Part shown: positions 2,344 through 62,365 of the stretch, one piece after another | Numbering within the stretch: the first letter of the stretch is position 1 | Layout: the number at the start of each line of letters is the position of its first letter | DNA from: Macrostomum lignano | Taxonomy: Eukaryota | Length of the DNA: 64,000 nucleotides | Reading direction: 5' to 3' | Assembly (NCBI GenBank): GCA_002269645.1 | Contig: NIVC01002233.1 | Location: 17,306-81,305, forward strand | Program-made: the position numbers and the translations under genes | The notes under the pieces: generated by a model | Databases searched by the model: none | What the model was told of the DNA's origin: nothing | Seen by the model: only the letters and a program-made list of their open reading frames with translations

Positions 2344-5300
2344 TCACGAGAGCAAGTCGGCGTCCTGAGATGACTGAATGAAATGCGTGTCAGTGGAGCC
2401 CTCCGGCTCCGAGTTGATCTCCTCGGGTGCTGCTGCCTCACCGGCGGCTGCGGGACTGGCTGCCACGTGCCAGGGATTCGAGGCGCGCAGCAGTTGGTTG
2501 CCTAGGTAACGCTTAATCAGCTCGCGACCGGCGATTGTGCATGCCGACGTGGCCGACGCTGCGTAGGACAGATCTGCCAGCTGCTCCGTGGCGCCGTCTG
2601 CGGTCGGGTTGAACTTCTCGACGGTGGATAAAATGCCAACCGTGGGCTGATCGGACCAGCCGCCCATCACCATGATGCCGCCCTCGAGCACCGCTGTGGA
2701 CAGGTTGCTCTTCTGGCGCCGAAGCTGAGATGTTTATTGGCAGGTAGGTAGGTAGGCAGGTAGGTAGGTTAGGTAGATAAGTAGGTAGATACATGTACGT
2801 AGACAGCAAAATTAGGTGGGTAGGTAGTAGGTAGGCAGGTAGGTGGGTAGGTAGGTAAGGTCTAGGTAGGTAGGTAGGTGGGTAGGTAGATAGGTTAGGT
2901 AGGTAAGTAGGTATGTAGACAGAAAAGATAAGTGGGTATGTAGTAGGTAGGTAGGTAGGCAGGTTAGGTAGGAGGGTAGAAGAGAATACAGGTAGGTAGA
3001 CACTGTATAGTTGGGTTAATTGGACAAAAAATCGGATAAAGAACCAATCATGGTAGCTGTTGGAGAGCGCGTGAGATGAGGACAAAAAAGTAGCGACTTT
3101 TCAATTTTGTTTGTCGCTTCAAACAATAACAGTTAATAACTTGTACACCAATTTTAATAATTTTTGCAATTTTCAAATGCTTCTTGTTGGTATTGAGCAT
3201 TGAAATTGACTGTACCTGAGGTTTGGGGACTAAGCATTCAATTAAAAATTCGGCAGTCAGTATTTATAGTTTATAGCCCTAACAGTTCTGTATCGTATTT
3301 TGCGTAGAATTTTATTGAAAATATAGAGAAGAGTTCATGCATGAAACCTAGTCTTAAAAGCAACCTTTGAATTTCGAAATTATTTGGATTTCAATGCAGG
3401 CATCCGTAGGGCCGAATTTTTTGGTTATAATTGGCTACATGGGTAAAAATTAACTAACAAAGAAGGCACTCACCCTTCCCGAGAACACCCAGCCTTCGCT
3501 CTCGTGCTGATAAGCTTCAACCACTGCCAATCGACTTTGGCCGTCGTTGCCGCCGATGGCGTACAGCGTGTTGCCCATAGCAACTAGAGATACGCCGCCA
3601 CGACAGAAGTTCATCCGACTGATGAAGCTCCACTGATCGGTAGCCGGATCGTACACTTCGGCGGTGTCGTGGTACTGCTGGCCGTTGAAACCGCCGGCAA
3701 CGTAGATTCGTCCGTTAAGCGCAGCGGCCCCAGCGTCACTTCGCACCGTCCGCATGCTGGACACGGGCAGCCAGCTGTTGTCGTCGACGCTGGTCTTCTC
3801 CACCGAGTCCAGTCGGCCGCCGCATCTGTCCTGCGTTTCGCCGCTGTGGCCGCCAATTGCGAACATTTGGCTGCCGATGGAGGCGCAGCAGACGTAGTAC
3901 CGCTTGTAGATCATGCAGGAGCCCTCGTACCAGCCGGCTTGAGTCTTCAAGTTGTAGCAGGACACCGTATTCAGAGCTCTCTCGCCGTCGAAACCGCCAA
4001 TTAGATGAAGAACATCGTTAACTACAAGGCAGCCTGAGTAGACTCGTCGCTCCACTTGGCCAATGTCGTTCGAAGGTCTGGACGCATTCGGTGACCACAT
4101 TGTCCAGGTGTTGGCGCGCGGATTGAACACCTGGCAGGCGGCCCTCGGCCCGAACTCTTGGCACCAACCGCCGAACAGCATGACGGCCTCGTGCGGCTCC
4201 CGGGGCGTGGATGCGAATGCAAGATTGTCCGAGTTTCGACGATAGACGTCGAGTAGGTTAGGCGGCACGTTGGGAAACGATTTCAGAAGCGCCAGCAGAC
4301 TAGGAAATCGGCTGAGCATCTCGTGCTGCATCAGGACGCCGAGTTCTCTCGTATTCATTAGACCAAGACGAACGCAGGACAGCAGAGACTCGCCGTGAGC
4401 TGACCGCTTTGGCCAATCGACGTCAAGCCAACGCAAAGCAGCGTCCAGAACAGCCAGCTCTGAGCTGCAGTTGATGCCCGGATGGCTCAGCAACCGGTGC
4501 ACCATATCGAATTCCAGTTGCGGCCATAGCGACTCCTGAATTGCGCGAGGAAAACTGCGTATTATCTGGTCGAACGCCAGACCGTTGAGCTCTGGCAGGT
4601 AGTACACCTCTGAGAAGGCCCAGATATCGAGGGCGAGGCTCAGGTTTCTGGTGCACTGCTCCTTGATATAATCAAGCGTTTTAACGCGCAAATCCTGGTA
4701 GAGCAGGTAATCGGCGGCTTGGTAAAGATCGACGCAGTTGTCCTCACGAACGGCAATGGCGTCCTCTCCGTTGATCATCGCGTTCAAAATTTCATTAATT
4801 TCTTGCTTGAGAAAGCCGCATTCGCCGTACGGAAGCTGAAGGTTACTATAAAAGTGCGATTGAAGCGGTGCTTTTCGTATTGTAATTGCACTTACAACTC
4901 GTGACGTCGCAGACTGCGAGTAAACGTTAAAATTTCTTTCTTCTAATTGCAAACCGTAAAATAAAAGAGTATTTTCATCCATATACATTTGCAGCTCTCA
5001 TCAGATCTATTAGGGGCCGAAACAAGTATGCTTTATTCTACCTGAATGTTATACTTTCAAAGTAGTAAGACAACACAAGTGACCATTCGATAGACAGGAT
5101 GTCAAACGAAAGTACTATTTGATGCACTTTAAATATCCTTAGTCAAATTAGGATTCAAATGAGAATTGCGCATTCTTACCTGTTTCTCGAATACTTAATT
5201 AGCGCATCAAAAAACGAGCTACTCTCAGCCATGAGCAGACTGTGCACCGGACAAACTGAGCCCACGGTCGAGGGCGGTAATTGCTGAGCTCCTTCGCCTG

Positions 5301-8616: not shown

Positions 8617-11362
8617 ATGGACCTGCAAACCTGGAAGAAGTTCGCCGTGCTGCAATGGGTGCTGACCTTCCTGCTGGTAGGTCCCGGCTGCGCAGCCATC
8701 ATGTTGATTCTGTTTCGCACCAGCTGGTGGTCCGCAGTCCTGCTCTACGGAGTCTGGTACTACTACGACCGGGACACGCCACGTCGGGGTGGTCGCCGAG
8801 TCAACTGGGTGCGCCGCTGGGGCCTCTGGCGTCGGATGGCCGAGTACTTCCCGGTGAAACTGCACCCTACCTGCGAACTGGATCCCAAGGAGAACTACGT
8901 GCTTGGCTACCATCCGCACGGCGTCCTGAGCACGGGCGCTTTTCTCAACTTCGCCACCGAAGCTACCGAGTTCAGTAGGAAATTTCCAGGAATAACTCCG
9001 TACCTGAGCGTGCTTGACGGCCATTTCGACTTCCCGTTGTACCGGGAGTACTTCATGTGCTCCGGTGAGCAATGAACTCTGTTCTGCTCTTCCCCTAATT
9101 TCATCTGTATCTGAAAAGCGCATCTTACTCTTTTCCAGTCTTTTTTTACATATCTACTTTCCTCCCTGCTTCCCATCTGCACCTTTTGCACCACGCATCC
9201 TCGGAACCAGTAAAAGTACAAAAGAATATTGTTGAGCAGCTGCAATGCGAAACTAATCGGAAAATAAAACACACATTGTACTTTAACCCCCCCCCCCATG
9301 CAGGCGTGATCTCCGTGCGCAAAGAGAGCCTGCAGAACGTTCTCCATCAGCGTCGCAAGACTGCCGGTGGTCAGTTGGTCTGCGTCATTCCGGGCGGAGC
9401 AGTGGAAGCTCTGGACTCGCATCCGGGAACCGTGTACAGGGTGCACCTGCGCAACAAGCTGGGCTTTGTGCGGCTGGCCATGCAGACTGGGTCAGGAGTT
9501 CGATTCTGCGCCTCTCACCTCCATCTCAGCCCGTCTGTCTCAGATTCTCTCCCTTCATCTCAGCCCGTCTGTCTCAGATTCTCCCCCTTCATCTCAGCCC
9601 GTCTGTCTAAGTTTCTCTCCCTTCATCTCAGCCTGTCTGCCTCAGATTCTCCCCCTTCATCTCAGCCCGTCTGTCTAAGTTTCTCTCCCTTCATCTCAGC
9701 CCGTCTGCCTCAGATTCTCCCCCTTCATCTCAGCCCGTCTGCCTCAGATTCTCTCCCTTCATCTCAGCCCGTCTGCCTCAGTTTCTCTCCCTTCATCTCA
9801 GCCCGTCTGCCTCAGATTCTCCCCCTTCATCTCAGCCCGTCTGCCTCAGTTTCTCTCCCTTCATCTCAGCCCGTCTGCCTCAGTTTCTCCCCCTTCATCT
9901 CAGCCCGTCTGCCTCAGATTCTCTCCCTTCATCTCAGCCCGTCTGCCTCAGTTTCTCTCCCTTCATCTCAGCCCGTCTGCCTCAGATTCTCCCCCTTCAT
10001 CTCAGCCCGTCTGCCTCAGTTTCTCTCCCTTCATCTCAGCCCGTCTGCCTCAGTTTCTCTCCCTTCATCTCAGCCCGTCTGTCTCAACTTCTCTCCCTTC
10101 ATCTCAGCCCGTCTGCCTCAGTTTCTCTCCCTTCATCTCAGCCCGTCTGCCTTAGATTCTCTCCCTTCATCTCAGCCCGTCTACCTCAGTTTCTCTCCCT
10201 TCATCTCAGCCCGTCTGTCTCACCTTTTCTCCTTTCATTTCAGCCTTTCTCACTCCATCTTTTTCTGTCTTCATCATTTTTAATTTACCACAAAAGACAT
10301 TTCAATAAGACAATTGATTGAAAATTAAACTCCCAACAAAACTGACTTCCAGATCCAGCCTGGTGCCGTGTTTTTCCTTCGGCGAAATCGACCTGTTCAA
10401 CCAGGTGAACAACCGAGCCGGCAGCCCGCTGCGGGCGGTGCAGAATTTCCTGGTGAAAATTTTCGGCTTCTCAATGCCAATCTTCAGTGGACACGGCTTG
10501 CTGCCATTCGCTAAGCCTATCAACACCGTTGGTGAGCGTTTGGGCGACTTAATCGCTACTTTATCTGATTTGAGGTTTAATTAATTAAATTAGTGAGAAT
10601 TTTATCTGTGGTATTACGCTACTTTTAGTAGTTACAATCTCTCCTCAGAGGACAATAAGCGAAAGCTTTCACATCATCGAAGTTTCAAATCGTAAAAAAA
10701 TAGTTCATCATCAACTTGAATCCCCATTATCCAGGTAATAAACTTCAGCTGAAGAGATTCCATTACTTAGGTGGTAATATTAAGTAAGAGAATTACTACG
10801 TGATTGATTTCGACAATGTGAAATTTCGTCAAATTTTAACAACAGAAAAGCAGGTGCGACCTTGGGAGTCGCCCGGCAGTTTCTATTAATAGCACCACAC
10901 ACAGTACGAGCAATCACGTGACATACTTTGGTCGCGCCGGTTGCCAGTACAAACGGCGAGGAGATTCTCATGGTCACTAGTCGGCCTTGGGTCAGACCCG
11001 CTTTTTGAGCTAAAAATAGACTGGCGACGCAAATGTACATACATACTCGTAGTCACGTGACTTAAAGTTTAATGCAGACAATTGTTTTTATTCCTCAGAA
11101 ATCTAGCTTTTACGTAACGCTTCCTATTTTTATTATTAGAAAACGTAAAAAATAATTCTAATTATATAGATACGAACTTAATTATCTCTTTTTCTTTTTT
11201 TACCTTGCAGTTGGGGCACCAATTAAGGTGGAGAAAAATTACGAACCAACTGATGAACAAGCTCGCGATCTGCTCAATCGCTACATAAGCGATTTGGAAT
11301 TGTTGTTCTGCGCCAATAAAGCAAAGTACATCGGGACCGATGCTCGACTCGAGATAGTGTGA
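8617..11362 (+). CDS. DGAT2/MOGAT-family acyltransferase, ~321 aa; exons 8617-9064, 9304-9490, 10353-10531, 11211-11362
   Basis: YHPHG motif, GGAVEAL, GFVRLAMQTG/SSLVPCFSFGE, PINTV/VGAPI. All junctions are GT-AG with matching phases (1, 2, 1). Confidence 0.92.
9503..10225. repeat. ~34-bp pyrimidine-rich minisatellite (CTCTCCCTTCATCTCAGCCCGTCTGCCTCAGATT) in acyltransferase intron 2
   Basis: About 20 tandem units. The array accounts for the spurious SSQPVCLSFSP extension in the ORF track. Confidence 0.95.
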
Positions 11363-33906: not shown

Positions 33907-35487
33907 CTACTTAGAAGACACCGGAGTATCTCTCGCTGGGGCGGACCCGGCAGTCAGCGGGCAGTACTGAATGAAACTGTGCAGTGTGCGATCAAAGCCC
34001 AGCGACCATTTGAACAGGCGGCAGCAGGCCTCCAGTTTCTGGTCAAACTCGAACGGATAATGATAATAGAGCGAATCCACCAGGTGCTGATGGTAGCGCA
34101 GGCCTAAACGATTGCAGGCGTCAATCATTCGGCTATCGGTGATGTCGCAGTCCCGAAGCGGCAGGTACAGCAGCTTGGCAGCGCAGAACAATGCGATGAG
34201 TTCCGGCCGCATGTCCGTGACTTCTTGCAGCAGGCTGATGTAGGTTTCGCATTCGACCAGAGGCGTGTAGTCAACCAGGTGGCTGCTGGTGCTGCGCACC
34301 TGCGTTTTATCGGGTGAGGGATAGATATTAACGATTGCAGGCTTAGGGGCGATTCTATAGGGTAGCTGATGGGCCGATTCTATAGGGTAGCTAATGGGCC
34401 GATTCTATAGGGTAGATAATGGGCCGATTCTATAGGGTAGATAATGGGCCGATTCTATAGGGTAGCTATGGGCCGATTCTATAGGGTAGATAATGGGCCG
34501 ATTCTATAGGGTAGCTATGGGCCGATTCTATAGGGTAGATAATGGGCCGATTCTATAGGGTAGCTATGGGCCGATTCTATAGGGTAGATAATGGGCCGAT
34601 TCTATAGGGTAGCTATGGGCCGATTCTATAGGGTAGATAATGGGCCGATTCTATAGGGTAGCTATGGGCCGATTCTATAGGGTAGATAATGGGCCGATTC
34701 TATAGGGTAGCTAATGGGCCGATTCTATAGGGTTGCTCATGGGCCGATTCTATAGGGTAGCTATTGGGGCGATTTTATAGTATAGGGTAGCTAATGGGCC
34801 GATTCTATAGCTAGATAAAAGAGGGGTTATATAGGGTAGATAATGGAGTAATTCTAGCAAATAGCAAATAGCTAGATTCTATAGTATAGGGTAGCTAATA
34901 GGGCGATTCTATAGCATAAAGTAGCAAATAGGGTCACTAGTTCTATAGCTAGGGTAGCTAACAGGCGATAGTTAAGGACCAATGTTGCTCACAAAAACTA
35001 CTTACCAGATCGATAAAGAGCTGAATGGGGTGGCAGCTGATCTTACTGCCCCGGATGGTGAAGTAGAACTGCCTATCATCCTGGCAGTAGCCAGCGCAGG
35101 ACAGCGGGAACAGCACAGAATGCAGGCGGCACCTGAGCAGAGCCAGAAAATGCGGTTTCTCCAGCTGGTCTACCTGACGCAGACCCGCTATAAACCTGGC
35201 AACCTGATGAACGAAGGCTTCTAGCATGGCTACGCCAGTGTCATTAGCCGTTTGAATATCGCACAGCATCGTATCCGCAACCAGTTTTCTCAGTTCGACA
35301 AAGAAGTCAACTAAAAGTACATTGGCATAGCGATGATCCTCCGCGCCAGAAGCTTCGTTACAATTCGGCTCAGTGAATGAAGACGGCGGCAGTTTCGGTT
35401 CAGGCGACTGCAGGCGATGCCAGAGTCGAAGCAGGTGCTCGCTTTGGTCCGAGTCTCTGGCTGCGTCAGGTAGACGGGCCGGCTGAA

Positions 35488-35519
<32 letters not shown>

Positions 35520-35998
35520 AGCGGCGTCGGCCTGCGAATCGCCGAGGCGAATGATGAAACAGACGACGAAGACGAGCCCACAGACATCATCGTCGGCAGC
35601 GGTACTGAGGCTGAAGACGACGGCGATTTAGCAGACGGTTGGTACACCTGATCCGCCTTCTGGATGAGGTCGGCCTGCATGCCAACGGCGAAGCACTTGG
35701 CCAGCCGGCAGCCGGGGCACTTCTTCCTCGTAGCCAGACTGACCTCGCAGCCGCCTCGCCGAAAACTGCAGGCGAATCCAGCCTCGCCAAGTGTCTGCTT
35801 GTGCGCGTTACGACGAAAGAACGCTTTGCAAGACTCGCAGCTGATAACGCCAAAGTTATAATTCTCAGCCTTGCAGCCGCACACTAGGCAATAGCGTCGC
35901 ATTAGATCCGCCGGCGTTTTCGGGTGGCGACATTTTTTGCGATGAACAACGCCAGATTTAGTGATGTGCATTGGCCGCCTGTCTGGCAGCATAGCCAT
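33907..35998 (-). CDS. Nuclear hormone receptor, HR96/NR1J (DAF-12/NHR-8-like) group, ~461 aa; exons 35998-35006, 34299-33907
   Basis: C4 DNA-binding domain CLVCGCKAENYNFGVISCESCKAFFRRNA...CEVSLATRKKCPGCRLAKCFAVGM with P-box CESCKA. One phase-0 GT-AG intron. The ligand-binding domain is divergent. Confidence 0.88.
34345..34930. repeat. 24/25-bp alternating minisatellite (GGGCCGATTCTATAGGGTAG-ATAAT/CTAT) in the receptor intron
   Basis: Direct tandem array with a 49-bp higher-order dimer. Confidence 0.93.
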
Positions 35999-37054
35999 TA
36001 GTTGCTTTGGAGTTGTTGATTACAGCTGCAAAGATGACGAAATTCGCCTTTCTAAATTGAGGAATTTCACAATAGGGTTTCGCGGTAGCACGCTTGGTAA
36101 CTCAGAACTGACCTTTGATTATTTGCGCACTGCAAGTTGGTTCTGGACCTTGAAAAGCTTTTCTGCCACGGCTAACCCCAATTTATACAGAAACTGACTA
36201 GTGGTAGGGTTCGTCGCTGACACTCACGCTTCTCCTTTCTAGGCCGGTGGAAAAAAATTTCTGCCCTTCTCTTTATTGCAGAGCGGCGCAAACGCACACC
36301 CCCTATGTCCCCGGGTACTTTTGTACCCAGCCATGCCCAACTTGATTGGTCAGAATCATCCACCGCGTCTATTTGCGAGTGTGGGGGGAAGGGCCAGACA
36401 CAGGGTGCAAGTGTACAGCGTACTGCTTGAAGACCTTTCATGTAACTTTTTCTCTGTCTGCCCTCTCTATACATTATCACGCGATCGTGCCGCCATTGGC
36501 TGCGACAGCTGGGTACAAGTGCGAGACAGTTCTCTCCGCTCCCCTATACTCCCTCTGTCCCTTCCTCGGAACAACTCGCTCCATCCTTAGAGGACACACA
36601 AGGGTATCAAAAAGCCATAGTTTTTGGATTGGAAGGTGGCTGAAAATGTAACGAACACATAATAACAGAAATCTTTCCACTTGATGGGGCAGAGAACGAA
36701 CAAGACGAAACTCTAAACGCAATTGCAATTTTCAACTGACTGAAGTATCAAAGATTGCATAGCCAATTGCCGATTGAAAAAGTAGGTTAAAGTGCATAAT
36801 AGAGGACAGTGACTAGACGAGACGAGACGCAAATATTCAGACACTTCCCAAAACTAGTGGAGGAATTTTCCAGGATTAAGATTTGCACTTGCTCGAGTGC
36901 ATAACAATGCTTTGTATACGAATTGTAATTTCGAATGCGAGCCCGAGCATTTATTAAAAATCAATCAATGTGATAAAATTGGCTTTTATTGTATTGTATC
37001 TTTTTTTCAAAGCCTTCTTTTCACTGCATCATTTCTAACTCTCTCACCATCTCT

Positions 37055-49416: not shown

Positions 49417-49785
49417 AAAATTCCTGCTAGCAAACTTCGGTTAGCAGATTTCGTCTAGCAGATTTCGGCTAGCAGATTTCGGCTAGCAGATTTCGGCTAG
49501 CAAACTTCGGCTAGCAGATTTCCTGCTAGCAAATTTCATAGACCCTAATTTATATTGGACGCCTCATTTTGTTTTAGTAAAAATTAATAATTATAATAAT
49601 TATTATTATTAATAATACAAATAGTAATAATAATAATAGATTACGCCTGCCCCAGGTGGGCCAGATGTGCAGCCGACAGCTCAGCCGCATCTGAAGGCTC
49701 TGAAGGCTGTTCAGTCCGAGGACTGGGGGGGGGGGGGTCGCCACACACAGCCTCAATTACCCCAGCTAATGCTGGCACCCATTTT
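49417..49785 (+). repeat. ~369-bp direct duplication of 48471-48836 (14-bp repeats, AT-rich segment, SINE 3' half)
   Basis: Near-identical, differing mainly in G-run length and a few bases. Confidence 0.93.
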
Positions 49786-49837
49786 GCAGCAGCTTGAAAC
49801 AGCAGCACAGCAGCAACAAAGTTGCAATGCAACAACA

Positions 49838-49915
49838 CCCACTCTATTGTCCAGTGGCCTCTTCGTGGCGAGTGGGAGCCGGCCCCTCTGGGGACGGAGA
49901 CTCGAACAACTGGAC
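49838..49915 (+). ncRNA. HDV-like self-cleaving ribozyme at the retrotransposon 5' end
   Basis: P1 CCCACTC/GAGTGGG; P2 GTCCAGT(G)/(CA)ACTGGAC; P3 GCC/GGC; L3 TCTTCGT; P1.1 CT/AG; P4 CCG-G-CCCC-TCT-GGGG-A-CGG; J4/2 CGAA with the catalytic C at 49903. Confidence 0.85.
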
Positions 49916-49985
49916 GAACTCGGAACACCTTCGTTGGAGAGGAGAGGCGGTGGAGGAAATACCAAACCGCGAGATAGATGAGCGT

Positions 49986-52900
49986 ATGGGATGGAGAGCG
50001 ACTGAAATAGTACCGATTGCCATGGACGTCGAAAGGAACCCCGGACCCTGTGGTCGTTGCAGTAAAGTGATAACGTCGGGCCACAGGCCTATCAAATGCC
50101 AAGAATGCAACAAGGACTTTCATGGCGCGTGCACTGGACTCACCCGATCAGCGCAGGAGAGAGCCAGACAGCAACCCCACTGGCGTTGTTCAAACTGCCA
50201 GCTAGACGGCCAATGGAAAGAAGAAAGCGATGCCGAGGAGCGCGCCCGCTGGGAAAGAGACGCTGAAGCCATTCGAAACGGCGACTCATGCTCTGCTAAA
50301 GGATGCAAGACTAAGCTGAAAATCACTAAGGTCATCGTGCGCTGTAAGGAGTGCCACGGGCTGTTCCACAACAAATGTTCGGGCGCTAGCAGAGCATCCA
50401 TCGAGGGCGAAGTTAGGCGCGGAAAGTGGTCCTGCACGGACTGTCTGAACCGTATCCGGCTTACCTCGGAGGAGGCCTCCGCCACGGATGATCAGAACAC
50501 CCGCACGGGCGAAGCGAGTGCCGGATGGGCTGTTGATCGCAAGAGTACTCTACGCATACTGCAGTGGAATGCGGATGGCGTTAACAACAAAAGGGCGGAA
50601 CTGGAAGAGTTTCTACACAATCTAGACGTCGACGTTGCTGTCCTCCAGGAGTCGAAACTTTCGGAGGCGAGTGAGACCCCCCGTTTTAGAGGGTACACGA
50701 CGGTCCGTAAAGACCGCAGAGAGATCCGCCGCAGTGAGAGAGCTAGAGGGGGCGGCCTCATTACTCTGATTAAGCACAATATCCCGTTTAAACGTCTAAC
50801 TGCTTGGAAAGGCAATATCACCGAAGGGCTCAGGACGATAGTTGACATCAGCAAAAAAGAGCGCATTGTGATCACCAACGTCTACCGCCCCCCGATTAGG
50901 ACGGTGGAAGGGGAAGATGACAGAGACAGAGACAGCGTGTGGGACTGGATGAGCCCCGATCGCCGGGAAATTATCCTGGGTGACTTCAATTTGCACTCGG
51001 CAGAATGGGGTGCCACGGCCGAGCAAAGCCATCAAGATCAGCGCGAGGCGCAGGAGCTCCTTGATTGGTCCACGGAGTTCCAGTACCAGATCCTTAACGA
51101 CGGAACGGCCACCCGCACGGACTGGCGCACTGGCGCGCAAAGTTCCCCGGATGTTTCGCTGGCTGCACCTGACATCTGTATGAGATGCAAATGGTCCTGC
51201 TCACGAGGACTCAGCTCCGACCACCACCCGATCATTATCGACATCACCGCAGAAAGGGAAGTCAGAAAAATCAGAAAACGGTTGGCGTGGTCCTGGAAAA
51301 AGGCCGACTGGACCGAGTACCAGCGACGCTGTGAAGAGGCGGTGACTGCGGTCCCTAGGGGGCCCATAGCCCAAGAAACGAGAGCCCTCAGCGAAGCTAT
51401 GGTCCAGGCCGCTGTTAAGTGTATCCCCAAGAAAAGGGTGGGAAACCGCTATATGCCATTCTGGGATGAACAACTTGCGGAGGCCCAGGCATTACGTGAT
51501 AAGGAAAGTAGAGAAAACTCTGATAGTAGAGCGCGGTGGCACAGCGCTAACGAAACCCTTAGCAATCTCATCAAAGAGAAACGTTCCGCCTTCTGGAGAG
51601 AGCACGTGAGTAAGCTGCAAGAAGGAGATGACGGCAAAAGCACATGGAGGCTGATCAAGACCCTGCACGCGGTTAAGGAGGACTGTGTCCCTAACGAGAT
51701 CGTGGTCAACGAAGGACGAGAAGCTAGAACCGACAAGGAAAAAGCGGCGGTCTTCATTAATTTGTATGCATCAAACAGCAAAGTCCAGCTGGGTAAAGAA
51801 GAGCGGGCGTTAAGAGCTGAGGTCGCCAAGAAACTAAGGACGTACAACGAGGGCGCTGAATTCAGCACCCCGTTCACCCGCGAAGAACTCAAAGACGCAC
51901 TTGACCAGATGGCTGCAGACAAAAAAGGTGGCGTCGACGGTATTGAGGTACGGTTCCTTAAGAACTTGCCCGAACAGTGCTTAGATCGCTGGCTCGACAT
52001 CTTCAACCGCAGTTGGGCGGAGCACTCGTGCCCCGGGATCTGGAAGAAAGCCGAGATCATACCACTGCTCAAAGCCGGCAAAGATCCGAAGCAGCGTGAG
52101 TCGTATCGCCCTATCAGCCTCACCCCGGTGTGTGCGAAGCTGATGGAGCGGATGGTCACTAATCGGCTGTACTTTTGGATGGAAGACAACAAGATCATCA
52201 AAAGTTGGCAGGCGGGCTTCCAAAGAGGCCGCAGCACTGAAGAGCAAGTGATCCGGTTAGTGCAATCCATCCAGGATGGCTGGGAGGAGCGCCGCCCGCT
52301 CAAGACCGTTGCCGTCACCCTGGACTGCTCCAAAGCATACGAGAGAGTGTGGCGGGTCAAATTGATGGATAGAATGCTGGAAGAAAAAGTCCCAGCGCAC
52401 CTCGTTAAGTGGTTCGCCAGCTTCCTGGAGGACCGCAAAGGCAGAGTGCGCGTGGGCGATGAGACCAGCAAATTCAGACGCTTCCAGGAGGGACTGCCGC
52501 AAGGAGCGGTGAGCTCCCCAGCGTTATTCCTCCTTTACGCTAACGGCTGGAACGGCCTCACCGAGCAGGGCGTGGAATATGGCGGCTTCGCCGACGACCT
52601 CGCCATCTGGGCCTCTGGTACCGTGTACTCGGAGGTCAGAGATACCATCCAGAGAGCGCTGATTAAGATCGAGAGGTGGGCCAAAGTGCTGAAGATAGAG
52701 CTAAATCCAACCAAATGCGAATGTTGTATTTTTAGTAGATCTCCTAAGGACAAGTCTGCTGTCACGGGACTCACGATCGCCGGCCGCACTATCGCCACTG
52801 TGAGGAAACTTAAATACCTGGGTATCACCATCGATGGCGGCTTAACGTTCGCGGCTCATACGGAGGCCGTGCTAAACAAAATGAAACGCAGAGTTAGAGC

Positions 52901-54245
52901 TATCCGTGTCCTGGCTAATACCAGCTGGGGCTGGAGGACCGAGGAACTCCTGTTGATCTACAAAAGTATTGTTGAGAGTTGTATCTGGTACTGCGCCCCA
53001 GCGTGGCTCCCCTGGCTGTCCAGCACTAGCTTTGAAAAACTCGAACGTGCTCAGAGAGAATGTCTCCGTCTAGCTGCGGGACTGGTGCGTTCCACCCCCA
53101 TTGAAGCGGTGTACGTGGAGACTAATATCGAGCCGATCCGTTATCAAGCGCGCAAAAGGGCGATGCTGGCCTGGGAAAAGGCCACCAGAGCCCCAGAGGG
53201 AGACCCGCTCAGGGAGTGTAGTGAAAGAACCGGAAACCGCAGACTTCAGGCGAACAAAGGGTGGAGGGATCAGGCCAGAGAGGAATGCCTGAGGAGGTCG
53301 ACCCACCCCAGAGAGGGCTTCACCAGAAAGAGACACCCGCCGTGGAGACGGCTACATATGGACGGCGTCGTGATCGCTACGGAGCTTATTCGCGGAGGAA
53401 AGAAGGGTGACAGCAACCTCGCCACAGAGACGATCGACACCATTAACGCCTGGGGCAAATTCGATTTGTCAATCTACACGGATGGGTCTGTTGGAGAAGG
53501 GCAGCGTAAGGGTGGTGCAGCTTGTGTCGTGTACTTTGACACGGAGAGACGCGTCAAGAAAGCGGCGGCCGGGGAGTGGTGCAGCTCCCTGGTTGCGGAG
53601 GAGCGAGCCCTGGAGCTGGCACTGGATACCATTGCGGAGGCCAAGCCGCGAAATGCCATCATCCTGACGGACTGTAAATCGGCCCTCCTCAAGCTCAGCA
53701 GCGAGAAAGCTACCCAGGATACCACGTCGTACCGCCTGATCAGTAGACTCCGTGAGATTAGCCAAGTTACCAGAGTGGTGCTGCAGTGGGTACCCGGTCA
53801 TGTTGGTGTCGCGGGCAACGAGGATGTCGACCAGGAGGCTAAGGAAGCAGCGGCTCTACCGCAGGACGACGTCCCCGTCATGTGGAACTGTGTAAAGGCG
53901 GCCATCAGGAAGGAGCCGGCGCCCCCGCCCTCTGATGAGCGTCTCCGTAGGGTCTACAAGCACAAAATTAACAAATGCGCTGAAAATCGTAGCACGGAGA
54001 CCACACTCGCCCAACTCAGATGTGGTCAATGCAAGAAGACGGCCTACTGGCGACAAAAAATCGGTGCTGAGGCAAAGGCGAGTTGTCAGGACTGCGGTGA
54101 GGAAGAGGACAAGGACCACTGGGTGTGGTGCGACAGGTGGCATAAGGAGAGGGCGCGTTTTGGTATTCAAGGTCTGGAGGATCTGGGAGATGAAGCGAAG
54201 GTGCTAGGGTTCCTGAAGTGCACGCACCCTGAGTGGGTGCAATGA
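49986..54245 (+). CDS. Retrotransposon polyprotein: 2A motif, two PHD fingers, AP endonuclease, reverse transcriptase, RNase H, C-terminal zinc knuckle (the frame is open from 49794; the true start is uncertain)
   Basis: DVERNPGP; two Cys/His PHD-type clusters; APE (LQWNADG, LQES, VYRPP, GDFN, SDHHPI); RT (YRPISL, QAGFQRGRST, GLPQGAVSSP, FADD, KYLG); RNase H (YTDGS, AEERA, TDC, QWVPGHVGVAGNE). Confidence 0.93.
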   Translation: MGWRATEIVPIAMDVERNPGPCGRCSKVITSGHRPIKCQECNKDFHGACTGLTRSAQERARQQPHWRCSNCQLDGQWKEESDAEERARWERDAEAIRNGDSCSAKGCKTKLKITKVIVRCKECHGLFHNKCSGASRASIEGEVRRGKWSCTDCLNRIRLTSEEASATDDQNTRTGEASAGWAVDRKSTLRILQWNADGVNNKRAELEEFLHNLDVDVAVLQESKLSEASETPRFRGYTTVRKDRREIRRSERARGGGLITLIKHNIPFKRLTAWKGNITEGLRTIVDISKKERIVITNVYRPPIRTVEGEDDRDRDSVWDWMSPDRREIILGDFNLHSAEWGATAEQSHQDQREAQELLDWSTEFQYQILNDGTATRTDWRTGAQSSPDVSLAAPDICMRCKWSCSRGLSSDHHPIIIDITAEREVRKIRKRLAWSWKKADWTEYQRRCEEAVTAVPRGPIAQETRALSEAMVQAAVKCIPKKRVGNRYMPFWDEQLAEAQALRDKESRENSDSRARWHSANETLSNLIKEKRSAFWREHVSKLQEGDDGKSTWRLIKTLHAVKEDCVPNEIVVNEGREARTDKEKAAVFINLYASNSKVQLGKEERALRAEVAKKLRTYNEGAEFSTPFTREELKDALDQMAADKKGGVDGIEVRFLKNLPEQCLDRWLDIFNRSWAEHSCPGIWKKAEIIPLLKAGKDPKQRESYRPISLTPVCAKLMERMVTNRLYFWMEDNKIIKSWQAGFQRGRSTEEQVIRLVQSIQDGWEERRPLKTVAVTLDCSKAYERVWRVKLMDRMLEEKVPAHLVKWFASFLEDRKGRVRVGDETSKFRRFQEGLPQGAVSSPALFLLYANGWNGLTEQGVEYGGFADDLAIWASGTVYSEVRDTIQRALIKIERWAKVLKIELNPTKCECCIFSRSPKDKSAVTGLTIAGRTIATVRKLKYLGITIDGGLTFAAHTEAVLNKMKRRVRAIRVLANTSWGWRTEELLLIYKSIVESCIWYCAPAWLPWLSSTSFEKLERAQRECLRLAAGLVRSTPIEAVYVETNIEPIRYQARKRAMLAWEKATRAPEGDPLRECSERTGNRRLQANKGWRDQAREECLRRSTHPREGFTRKRHPPWRRLHMDGVVIATELIRGGKKGDSNLATETIDTINAWGKFDLSIYTDGSVGEGQRKGGAACVVYFDTERRVKKAAAGEWCSSLVAEERALELALDTIAEAKPRNAIILTDCKSALLKLSSEKATQDTTSYRLISRLREISQVTRVVLQWVPGHVGVAGNEDVDQEAKEAAALPQDDVPVMWNCVKAAIRKEPAPPPSDERLRRVYKHKINKCAENRSTETTLAQLRCGQCKKTAYWRQKIGAEAKASCQDCGEEEDKDHWVWCDRWHKERARFGIQGLEDLGDEAKVLGFLKCTHPEWVQ

Positions 54246-55672
54246 GGGAACCCGCCCAGCCGAAGACACACACACACACACAACAACAACAACAACAACA
54301 ACAACAACAGCACCAACACCAACAGTCGCAGCAGCAGCCTCAGCCTCCAGTCCAGGCGGCTGTCCCCAGTAGCGCAGCGGATTCGCCGCTAGACCTGACA
54401 ATTCCAAAGCTGCCGTCGCGTCGCTAGCCAAGGCGAACGGACCGGCGACTTTGTCGGCGTCCGTCTGCGGCCCGGTGCCACTGGATTTGTCCTACAATTC
54501 TGGCAGGTCGACTGGCGCATCGAGGATCGATCGGTCGCGTAAGCAGCGTCGCTCTTTGCCGCCCTCGATGCTGACGGCTCCACAGCAGCAGCGACAGCAG
54601 GGGGTGCCGATACTCAGCCCGCTGCTCTTCCCCAGCCCGACTCTGCCAACAACGACGTCAACGTCTGCAGCAGCTCCGGCCTCGTCCAGCTCAGTCGGCG
54701 TCCATCATCAGCTGGCCGATCATCTGCCCGTGTGGACGCCTCGCCGGAGCCTCCAGGCGTCCCGGGCTGCTCAGATTCGCAGCATTCGGCGCCAGGAGCC
54801 GTCGACGATCCTAGCGGCGGCCGCGGCGGCCGCCAGCCGGTGACCACCTGCCACCAGTGCGGCCGCGGCTTCGTCTGCCAGGGCGACATGAACGCCCACT
54901 TCGAGCTGGAGCACCTGGCCGCGCTAATGGGCGAATTCGACCATGGCAAGTCTTGGAAATCCTCCGCCGTGGAGAACAAGGAGCTCAACGTTGAGGCGAC
55001 CATGGTGCGGCTGGAGAACGGCGACACGATCGGGTTCAAGTGCCCCGAGTGCGACTACTTTGCCAAGTGGCCCACCGAGCTGCAGAAGCACATCATGGTG
55101 CACTCCAGCGCCAGGCCGCACGTGTGCGTCGTCTGCGGCTGCACCTACAAGTGGAAGTGGGACCTCGGCAGACACTTCGACCGATCGCACGAGTCGGCCG
55201 CAATGCCCAATCCGTATAAGAAGAACTCAGCCAGGCCGTCCAGCGGCGGCGGCGGCGGCTACCCGAGCAGCGCATCAGCGGCTGCGACCTCCTCGACAGG
55301 CCGGTCAACTCCAAGGGCGCCGCGTCAAAGTGGCGGCAGCGGCAGTAGCCGTCTGGCTTCTCCATCGGCTGGCGGCTCAACGACGGCCGAGCTGCTGGCG
55401 TACTATTCCACTCCAGCCCGGTCCGCTGCCATGGCTGCCGCTGCTGCGTCTGCCGCTGCCGCCGCCGCCGCAGCTGCCGTCGGTGAGGCCGCTGTGTCCG
55501 CCGCGGCGTCGCCGTCTGAGCCCGAGAATTGTCGCCTCCGCCTCCGCGGCTGGTGCTGAAGTCCGAGGATGAAGACGGCGTCAATGATGACTCACAGCTG
55601 CAGCAGCAGCTCGCCTGTCCTATCTGTGGCGCACAGGTGAGTACCACTCATTTGGGGGGGGCGGGGTGAAAT

Positions 55673-60452: not shown

Positions 60453-61919
60453 TTAAGAGGGCGAGTTGCCTTCCAGTTCGCGTTTCTCATAGTGACTAAA
60501 GTCGTCAAAGATGCTGGTACTGTGCCTATAGGACCTGATGATGCCGAGCACCTGGCGGCCCTGCTCAATAGGCACGTTTGTGCAGTCGCGAGAATTAGTC
60601 ACCGGCTTGTTCTCGTTAGTTGCCACCCGGACGTGGCGCAATTGACTATTTGGCACGTCCTTAACGTAAATCCATTTGATTTTGAACTCGCCAAGCCATT
60701 TATCCTGGCACCAGACGCCAGCATTTTTATTAACGTCAACCTGCGTTATCATCTGGGCTACGCCGCAGAAATGGCCGGACCCGTTCACTGAGAACAGCAG
60801 ATAGACTCGGCCGCCACGATTCGCTGTCCGACTGAAAGCGCCGTTGAGCACTTCGTTGCCGCGCTTTGTACTGCACCAAATCGAATATTTAATAGCTCGA
60901 TGAATATCGTCTTCGCTGTAGCTTTTAATAACGTAGAACTCTGAGTTGTCTGGCACGTCGTGCTTAGCCGGATTAATGTCCTGCTCAAGCTGGCGCAGCT
61001 GCTCCTCCGATGCAGCCGGCACGGGCTCCAGCGATTGCAACTGGCCACGATTGCCAGATGCTGGCTGCTGCTGCTGGTATTGCGGCACGTAGCCCTGACC
61101 TGGAGCCATGGAAGCCGCATTGCCGCGAGCCGGCTGCTGCTGCTGTTTCCCAGCGGCGTGACCTACAGCCAGGCCGCCAGTGCCTTTGCCTAGCGCCTTC
61201 GGATTGCCAGCCTTGTTGCCAATAGCAACCGGCACGGCCACTGGCTCGCCGGGCGCCGAGCCGCCAGACGCCGGTTTTTGAGCACCGCCGCTGGGTCCGA
61301 CAGGCGCCTGAGAGGCGGCAATTTTGGCCCAAGTTTTTGGAGCGGCGGCGCCGGCTGTCGACGTGCTCAAGGCTGGGAAGTCGACAGCTGAACTGTCGGA
61401 TTGCTGCTGCTGCTGCTGCTGCTGTTGAACGCTAAGACCGGCGATGCCCTGCTCAAGGATCGCCATCGAGTCTGCCGTGCCGTTGTTAGCGGACTGCGCG
61501 CCGGCTACAGCGGAGGCGGCTGTAGCAGCGGGCTGGTGCGGCATCGGCGCGTAGCCAGCAGGAGCCGGCGGCGGCGGCGGCGGCGGATGCGCGTAGCCGG
61601 GCCACACAGTCAAGTCGCCACTCTCGAAGCTGTTAGCAGCCGCGGCGGCTGCGGCAGCTGCAACGGGATTCCACATGCCGCCACCGTATCCGGTCTGATG
61701 CGGCGAGGCCTGCATATAGCCTGGGTAGCCGTACGAGTTGCCCTGATAGTAGCCCTCGGGGCTGTACTGCTGCTGCTGGGCGTAGTCGGCCGCCGGAGCG
61801 CCGGTTGACCAAACGGATCCAACGTCGACGCCGATTTGGCCGCCAGAGTAAGCAAAATTCTGCATCAGATAGGGCGCCTGGTGTTGACTGTAGTCTCCCA
61901 TGGCCTGGTTGTTTAGCAT
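60453..61919 (-). CDS. YTHDF: YTH-domain family m6A reader, ~488 aa (start probably ATG 61919 or 61901)
   Basis: P/Q/A-rich low-complexity N-terminus and a C-terminal YTH domain: [24 protein letters not shown]...[17 protein letters not shown]...GVWCQDKW...VKDVPN...NKPVTNSRD...[14 protein letters not shown] splice-acceptor-like TTCATGCAG lies upstream of the ATG. Confidence 0.93.
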
Positions 61920-62365
61920 CCGTTCTGTTAGGTTCAAGTCTGCATGAATTTCATAAAAAGAGTTGCTTAGATGAGACAAACCTTTGAAGCTTGACGGGAT
62001 GGATGGAAGTCGGCTATGGTCTCCATTCGAACACCGCATAATCAAGGACTACTAAATTCTACAGCAGCAAAATCTTATTGCTTATCTCACTCAGACAAAC
62101 TTTGCTGGGAAAGTTTGCTATCAAAAAACAGCAATTATACATAGTCACTATCCTATTCTATAAAATTAGATTATTTATAATTGATGCTGTCTCTTGCTAA
62201 TAATGTTTTTTATATAACTAATTGCAAAGATGAATTTTTGTGAATAGTAGTATATAAGTAGGTGTATAATATACATAGATATGACCAATATACAAATTAG
62301 TATAAATAATTTATTGTCCATTGAAAACTATACAGTGTATATAGTAAATGCTATATGTAGGTCTA

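Follow-up and report, generated by a model that had tools for sequence, protein, structure and literature searches.

In the flatworm Macrostomum lignano we found LINEs whose single open reading frame (ORF) is open from the first base of the element, agrees in phase with a polyQ translation of the CAG/CAA repeat into which the element inserted, crosses a predicted HDV-like ribozyme and reaches a conserved 2A (StopGo) motif before the first PHD finger. The chances are about even, in our judgement, that ribosomes enter this ORF on host RNA and that the 2A motif frees a Pro-initiated enzyme. The wider picture of a LINE radiation parasitising host start codons, with CAG/CAA targeting, a polyQ-phased translated ribozyme, an AUG from a host exon or a spliced leader and release by 2A plus ribozyme, falls slightly short of an even chance. 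The starting point was a family-A copy in the window, by which we mean the whole analysed stretch of 64,000 nucleotides (contig NIVC01002233.1).

The window element and its 2A motif

The family-A copy of the window carries an exact match to the 2A core D(V/I)ExNPG/P, in which the slash marks the predicted skip (Table 1). The pattern D[VI]ExNPGP occurs only once in the six frames of the window, and the number expected from composition was 1.8e-4. Motif and ATG 49986 lie in a 1491-codon stop-to-stop frame (49770-54245), and the first PHD finger (Pfam PF00628, E 1.8e-4, below the curated cut-off) begins one residue past the final Pro of the motif. The positions that an earlier note on this DNA had given for the ATG, the D codon and the G/P bond (50045/50046), and its placement of the motif directly before the first PHD finger, were all recovered in frame. 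A second in-frame ATG at 50022, which the earlier note had overlooked, abuts the D codon; its surroundings (GCC ATG G, 50019-50025) form a strong Kozak context by consensus. ATG 49827 shares the frame but precedes the first base of the element (49838).

The ORF of the window copy is intact, and a public M. lignano protein is identical to it. Its architecture (single ORF with PHD, APE, RT and RNase H, no ORF1, N-terminal 2A motif) is that of the Ingi clade; "Ingi-like" is our working label from this architecture, and our RT tree contains only the families of this genome and no named Ingi or L1Tc element. The 5′ boundary is common to five copies (5/5), which follow different CAA/CAG-rich flanks. 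At least 12 near-identical family-A 3′ ends, mostly of 5′-truncated copies, were found in the genome, and these numbers suggest that the family was recently mobile.

The 5′ flank of the window copy is less straightforward. The stretch 49786-49837 is similar to the polyQ stretch of the 3′-flanking zinc-finger exon and may be a degenerate copy of it, 49640-49785 is a dispersed repeat, the two flanks do not derive from one empty site, and the allelic 5′ flank (L125) diverges from the window at 49785. It is likely that the sequence was rearranged or misassembled at about 49785, some 50 bases before the element begins. Because of this doubtful flank ATG 49827, which the earlier note had listed as a possible start and which belongs to the flank of the window copy only, should not be relied on.

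Table 1. Features of the window element, its flanks and other genes of the window
Feature	Position	Strand	Remarks
BACK-Kelch gene	3453-4997	-	ordinary host gene
Diacylglycerol acyltransferase gene	9099-10280	+	ordinary host gene
Nuclear-receptor C4 zinc finger gene	34961-36019	-	ordinary host gene
CAG/CAA-rich target-side flank	49786..49837	+	ends in CA; includes in-frame ATG 49827
HDV-like ribozyme fold (predicted)	49838..49915	+	5′ boundary common to 5/5 copies; pairing kept across families
Ribozyme P1	49838-49844/49870-49876	+	
Stop-free leader	49839..50024	+	62 codons; from polyQ phase of target through ribozyme to 2A core
Ribozyme P2	49849-49856/49907-49915	+	
Ribozyme P3	49857-49859/49867-49869	+	
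Ribozyme L3	49860-49866	+	
Ribozyme P1.1	49877-49878	+	
Ribozyme P4	49879-49897	+	
Predicted catalytic C	49903	+	in J4/2
2A/StopGo-like peptide	49986..50048	+	core octamer DVERNPG/P at 50025-50048; D codon 50025, G 50043-50045, P 50046-50048; predicted skip between 50045 and 50046
Element protein	50046..54245	+	PHD fingers, APE, RT, RNase H, Cys/His-rich C-terminus (Pfam)
APE endonuclease domain	about 50559-51224	+	Pfam
Reverse transcriptase domain	about 52086-52832	+	Pfam
RNase H domain	about 53466-53852	+	Pfam
Short 3′ UTR and (CA)n(CAA)n tail	54246..54310	+	
Host C2H2 zinc-finger exon	54268..55560	+	Pfam zf-H2C2_5, E 3e-11
YTH domain gene	60456-62048	-	ordinary host gene

Conservation and sequence context of the 2A motif

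Conservation across element copies had been named in the earlier note as a check of the motif. Here, we found that three intact family-A copies retain it, and that a decayed pair (L008/L009) reads NPG-R and has lost ATG 49986 (ATA). The 2A core is conserved across the 26 families that we tabulated. When families A and B were compared, all eight core residues were identical (8/8) with six of the eight codons changed synonymously and none non-synonymously. The two families are 64% identical over the N-terminal region, and their similarity starts about 20 residues before the final Pro, which corresponds to the length of a 2A. The codon comparison supports a genuine motif that is constrained at the level of the protein.

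A protein search of the genome yielded 141 matches, and the motif or a one-residue variant preceded the first PHD finger in 67 of the 85 stretches examined. The 18 stretches without the motif were, on inspection, mostly 5′-truncated, frameshifted or rearranged; two loci with leader and PHD but no motif (L118, L177) are both decayed. Three motif-blind searches with the PHD finger only gave 18 further loci, 14 of which carry the motif or a near variant. Among database homologues the motif was present near the N-terminus in 38 of 91, and many of the others start at a later Met or are distant LINEs.

The upstream context had been called atypical in the earlier note, and this proved correct. Gly precedes the D of the core in 24 of the 26 families, and only families A and B lack it. 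Family A has Met at this place and Trp at position 19, and its upstream hexapeptide fits none of the four named groups (LLLxG, DLTxDG, DLTxE, PAPRLV; PMC12846837). D-type viral 2As strongly prefer Gly before D and their upstream residues are essential (PMC12846837), and class B 2As carry Trp at about 16 (PMC12338488). None of the supportive features (Gly before D, a named group, a class B Trp near 16) is present in family A. However, 28% of the viral 2A contexts are unclassified (PMC12846837), so this lack lowers the probability of activity in family A but does not exclude it. Skipping or stalling in family A is fairly probable, and its odds rest on the synonymous codon pattern.

These peculiarities would also fit a weak or vestigial family-A 2A, where the element's own AUG (49986 or 50022) gives a nearly identical N-terminus without skipping. 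In LINEs the motif alone often confers no activity (PMC3708506), and those supplementary tables of PMC12338488 and PMC13405545 that were searched do not list the window peptide. Family B, however, lacks the Gly and has no Met there, yet it has kept the octamer with synonymous changes only; this codon pattern, the start of the A/B similarity and the share of unclassified viral contexts make such a degenerate 2A very unlikely.

A putative ribozyme at the element's 5′ end

The 5′ ribozyme that the earlier note had put forward was borne out as a predicted HDV-like fold. All elements of the nested double pseudoknot (P1, P1.1, P2, P3, P4 and a C in J4/2) can be formed by the window copy. P1 comprises 7 bp in 23 of the 26 family representatives, and compensatory changes were seen in P1 and P3. 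The Rfam model RF02682 matched 49838-49907, starting at the first base of the element, with 23.4 bits (E 0.015), which is below the gathering score of 44; at the gathering score no Rfam match was obtained anywhere in the window.

Variants of the fold were observed in other families. In 12 families of three RT lineages (5′ ends of L054, L095, L053, L120, L073, L117, L121, L083, L105, L077, L158 and L102) the 5′ strand of P1 is predicted to be split by two adjacent hairpins (insert of 34-49 nt), with pairing maintained despite sequence change; in three other families this place is taken by a single bulged base. An automated search for such split P1 helices gave wrong 5′ strands, and the first bases were set by hand and checked against the target duplications. 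The inserts described in PMC4908430 lie in J1/2, not in P1. At the 5′ ends of L080, L111, L076, L091 and L093 the 5′ strand of P1 is itself CAG-repeat-like, and the target duplication of L091 shows that this strand is element-encoded. In L044 (family B) loop L3 carries a 21-nt insertion, a multiple of three that preserves the frame.

The leader is open and phased to the target repeat

The leader of the window copy contains no stop codon in the ORF frame and two in each of the other frames. Among the 26 family representatives, which were hand-picked with a preference for copies with open leaders, it is stop-free in the ORF frame in 24 and in the other frames in 2 and 5. Leader lengths take 21 different values (136-272 nt) over these families. 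The junction has a repeat in 24 families, and 20 of these are in polyQ phase with the CAG/CAA target (binomial p 7e-7, calculated for families that are not independent). When all intact independent copies were counted without choice of representatives, the leader was stop-free in 18/18, and for the 17 copies with a repeat the polyQ phase was found in 14, distributed over 8/9 families, and 3 were out of phase. In the larger set (60 independent insertions among 70 copies) 50 of the 54 insertions with a repeat were in phase, but this count assumes the phase of each family, so the 14/17 of the intact copies is the cleaner number.

In the RT tree, from which families T, Z, D2 and M (short RT matches) as well as U2 and Z3 were left out, five deep lineages share the phase. 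Outside the clade of the window element their RT sequences are 33-54% identical to its RT, and the number of independent cases is closer to five than to twenty. Leader length changed many times within lineages, and each change had to preserve the phase.

Three element-borne features that might anchor the frame were compared between the families. The phase of loop L3 (0, 1 or 2) differs from family to family and is offset by length changes at other places. In 21 of the 26 families the first base occupies codon position 3, mostly at a CA/ junction. In the H clade, however, it is at position 2 (C/ or T/ junction), and at unique sites the target duplications stop one base sooner, so that the target-site cut and the first base have both shifted; according to the RT tree this was a single evolutionary event. 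An in-frame Met before the 2A is absent in 6/26 families and its position differs in every family that has one. The leader of family H, for which 6 intact independent copies were available, contains no ATG in any frame. Thus, neither the ribozyme core nor an AUG of the element anchors the frame, the first base at the cut site does not do so strictly, and the most constant feature of the frame is the phase to the target triplet. This constancy suggests that the ribosomes arrive from upstream.

For the starts considered in the earlier note these data have different consequences. ATG 49986 is not conserved, as it reads ATA in the decayed pair and has no counterpart at a fixed position elsewhere, and the three core phases contradict a start tied to the ribozyme core. 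In contrast, the proposal that the 2A would standardise the N-terminus whatever start is used fits the sequence data.

One could also imagine an AUG-less start at or near the first base of the ribozyme-cut RNA, with an ancestral phase that matches polyQ by a one-in-three chance. The predominance of codon position 3 at the first base fits such a start, and a cap-independent IRES-like route after ribozyme cleavage has been proposed for L1Tc (PMC3383444). The segment from the first base to P1.1 is itself poor in stop codons (1 vs 14 vs 5), but this equally fits entry from upstream. The H clade, in which the target cut moved along with the first base, speaks against such a start, the phases of L3 contradict its core-anchored version, and an uncut spliced chimera appears to exist (see below). 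We regard it as unlikely.

Host fusions and landing sites

A sister copy (L006) shows no difference from the window copy over the 463 bases that were searched. It is inserted in frame into the polyQ tract of a spliced BOD1-like exon and has a 12-bp duplication. The public protein P0001 (1623 aa), an automated gene model, joins a COMPASS-Shg1/BOD1 domain (E 8e-9) to polyQ, leader, 2A motif and an ORF identical to that of the window. Position L006:5326 is a CAG splice acceptor of phase 0, and contigs of three runs from three studies, guessed to be RNA, leave the genome there. In one of these runs (X1) a single 2081-nt contig joins spliced host exons to the L006 element; being a de Bruijn contig, it is no proof of a single transcript. 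An unlabelled run (X15) reads through the acceptor, and X2 and X15 contain the empty allele.

Other insertions gave a mixed picture. L077 lies in frame inside an HSP20 gene (E 4e-9), and L089 lies out of frame in a fatty-acid desaturase gene; Pfam thereby supported a host domain in 1/19 stretches in phase and in 1/33 stretches out of phase. The 3′ end of the window element lies in the polyQ tract of the zinc-finger exon on the sense strand, and three empty alleles (L041-L043) read this tract as polyQ in the zinc-finger frame. Upstream open frames of the polyQ phase did not exceed those of the other phases in length (at least 60 residues in 16, 13 and 10 of 60 insertions). Both flanks were available for 38 sites, and at 10 of them one frame was clearly longer than the others (5 Q, 3 N/S, 2 T/A); of the coding-like landing sites, about half do not match the host frame. 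For CAR tracts away from the elements a clear long frame was found in 5/18, all Q but from only 3 loci.

Several families are stacked in each other's CAA tails or in a shared host repeat (L107/L103, L083/L076/L163, L175, L056/L184). In L175 the stop codon of one element is followed by an in-frame CAA run and then by the leader of the next element.

The out-of-frame sites bring in a second possible source of the AUG, namely spliced-leader trans-splicing onto CAG/ within the repeat. The polyQ phase would then result anywhere and the 2A would remove a junk peptide. The 35-nt spliced leader of M. lignano ends in ATG, its acceptor is YTNCAG and 30% of the genes are trans-spliced (PMC8629364). In parasitic flatworms partial leaders beside LTR/LINE elements have been read as trans-spliced retrotransposon RNAs (PMC12582326). 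The 3′ 17-mer of the leader occurs 79 times in the genome (G000; control 0), and 48 of the 60 independent insertions have an in-phase CAG or TAG within 15 codons of the junction. Such trans-splicing would explain that out-of-frame and non-coding landings keep the phase rule; a polyQ-phase boundary lies at each CAG/ of the repeat, and a spliced-leader AUG would fit the non-Q sites. However, the full YTNYAG acceptor was found in only 6/60 insertions, and 12/60, mostly pure CAA sites, lack an in-phase CAG/TAG. None of the 30 leader-bearing loci inspected (of 79) continues into these elements, a blank that is expected if the ribozyme removes the leader, and no leader-element junction was seen in the contigs of the runs examined. 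Taken together, trans-splicing as the general source of the AUG is rather unlikely. Of the 30 inspected loci (L186-L215), 8 continue as the gene of the leader RNA, and the others have the appearance of partial matches or of retrocopies of trans-spliced RNAs.

Discussion

The explanation that we prefer, host-supplied initiation with release by the 2A, can be laid out as a sequence of steps. The elements insert into CAG/CAA repeats with a fixed junction phase, as observed for most insertions with a repeat. An uncut, spliced, in-frame co-transcript of host and element would follow, to which the gene model and the RNA-guessed contig of L006 point. Initiation would take place at a host-supplied AUG, either that of the host gene or that of an AUG-ending spliced leader. 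Skipping at G/P, perhaps only partial in family A, would then free the PHD-APE-RT-RNase H protein, and the N-terminus removed in this way would be coded by host plus ribozyme. Later cleavage by the ribozyme would trim the host part, so that the new copy starts at the first base of the element. Family A itself counts against this scheme, as it lacks the Gly and has AUGs of its own, one of them directly before the D. The scheme is further weakened by the upstream open frames, which show no excess length in the polyQ phase, by the non-Q landing sites including the desaturase gene, by the single origin of the H-clade shift and by the 3 intact copies that are out of phase.

A different role of the motif would be that of a stall which lowers enzyme output rather than that of a separator. 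This has been proposed for L1Tc and other LINEs (PMC3708506, PMC3894237), and 59% of the tested ORF2p-associated 2A-like peptides lowered protein abundance (bioRxiv 10.64898/2026.06.17.732966). As the main function it appears most improbable, since it leaves the phase lock and the AUG-less leaders unexplained, but stalling can coexist with host-supplied initiation.

2A-bearing LINEs of the APE type are known, among them L1Tc, Ingi, Ingi-1_AC, Rex1, L2, CR1 and Crack (Odon et al. 2013, PMC3708506). The Macrostomum elements share with them the single ORF, the 2A in the N-terminal region and, in some, a PHD finger between 2A and APE. In the known LINEs, the 2A follows the N-terminus of the ORF by 40-80 residues and has been read as a down-regulator or an ORF1 substitute (PMC3708506). 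In contrast, many Macrostomum families have no AUG before the 2A, and their frame crosses the ribozyme into the repeat. L1Tc/ingi Pr77 likewise has an HDV-like fold in the first ~80 nt, a predicted cut 5′ of +1 and a downstream 2A (PMC3383444). L1Tc, however, is site-unspecific and has an internal promoter and a proposed IRES (PMC3383444), whereas the Macrostomum elements show CAG/CAA preference and a frame phase. Predicted class A 2As of Macrostomum were published before (Rao et al. 2025, PMC12338488), and at least two of them are identical to the contexts found in families E and K; supplementary file 3 of that paper lists them as peptides only, with activity N/A, and the window peptide is not in its table. 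The window element differs from the known 2A LINEs in that it has no Gly before the D.

R2 elements employ a restriction-like endonuclease. With the Macrostomum elements they have in common a site preference, co-transcription with the host locus and a 5′ HDV-like ribozyme that releases the element RNA, but they reside in non-coding rRNA, where there is no host reading frame to join (PMC3774820).

The 2A motif alone is ordinary. An N-terminal 2A in single-ORF APE LINEs (PMC3708506) and its pairing with an HDV-like ribozyme in L1Tc (PMC3383444) are already known. What appears to be new is that the ORF of this and of most of some two dozen related families is phased to the polyQ reading of its target. 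In the literature searched, the coverage of which was limited, we found no report of frame-locked insertion or of start-codon borrowing by a LINE.

How translation of ribozyme-headed single-ORF LINEs begins and what purpose the 2As of LINEs serve are open questions (PMC3894237, PMC3383444). The M. lignano elements display a predicted ribozyme that doubles as coding sequence, in-frame fusions of LINE and host proteins and about 25 natural 2A contexts, and transgenesis has been reported in this flatworm (PMC5730564). The phase lock offers a testable answer to both questions: the start would be supplied from outside, and the 2A would remove it.
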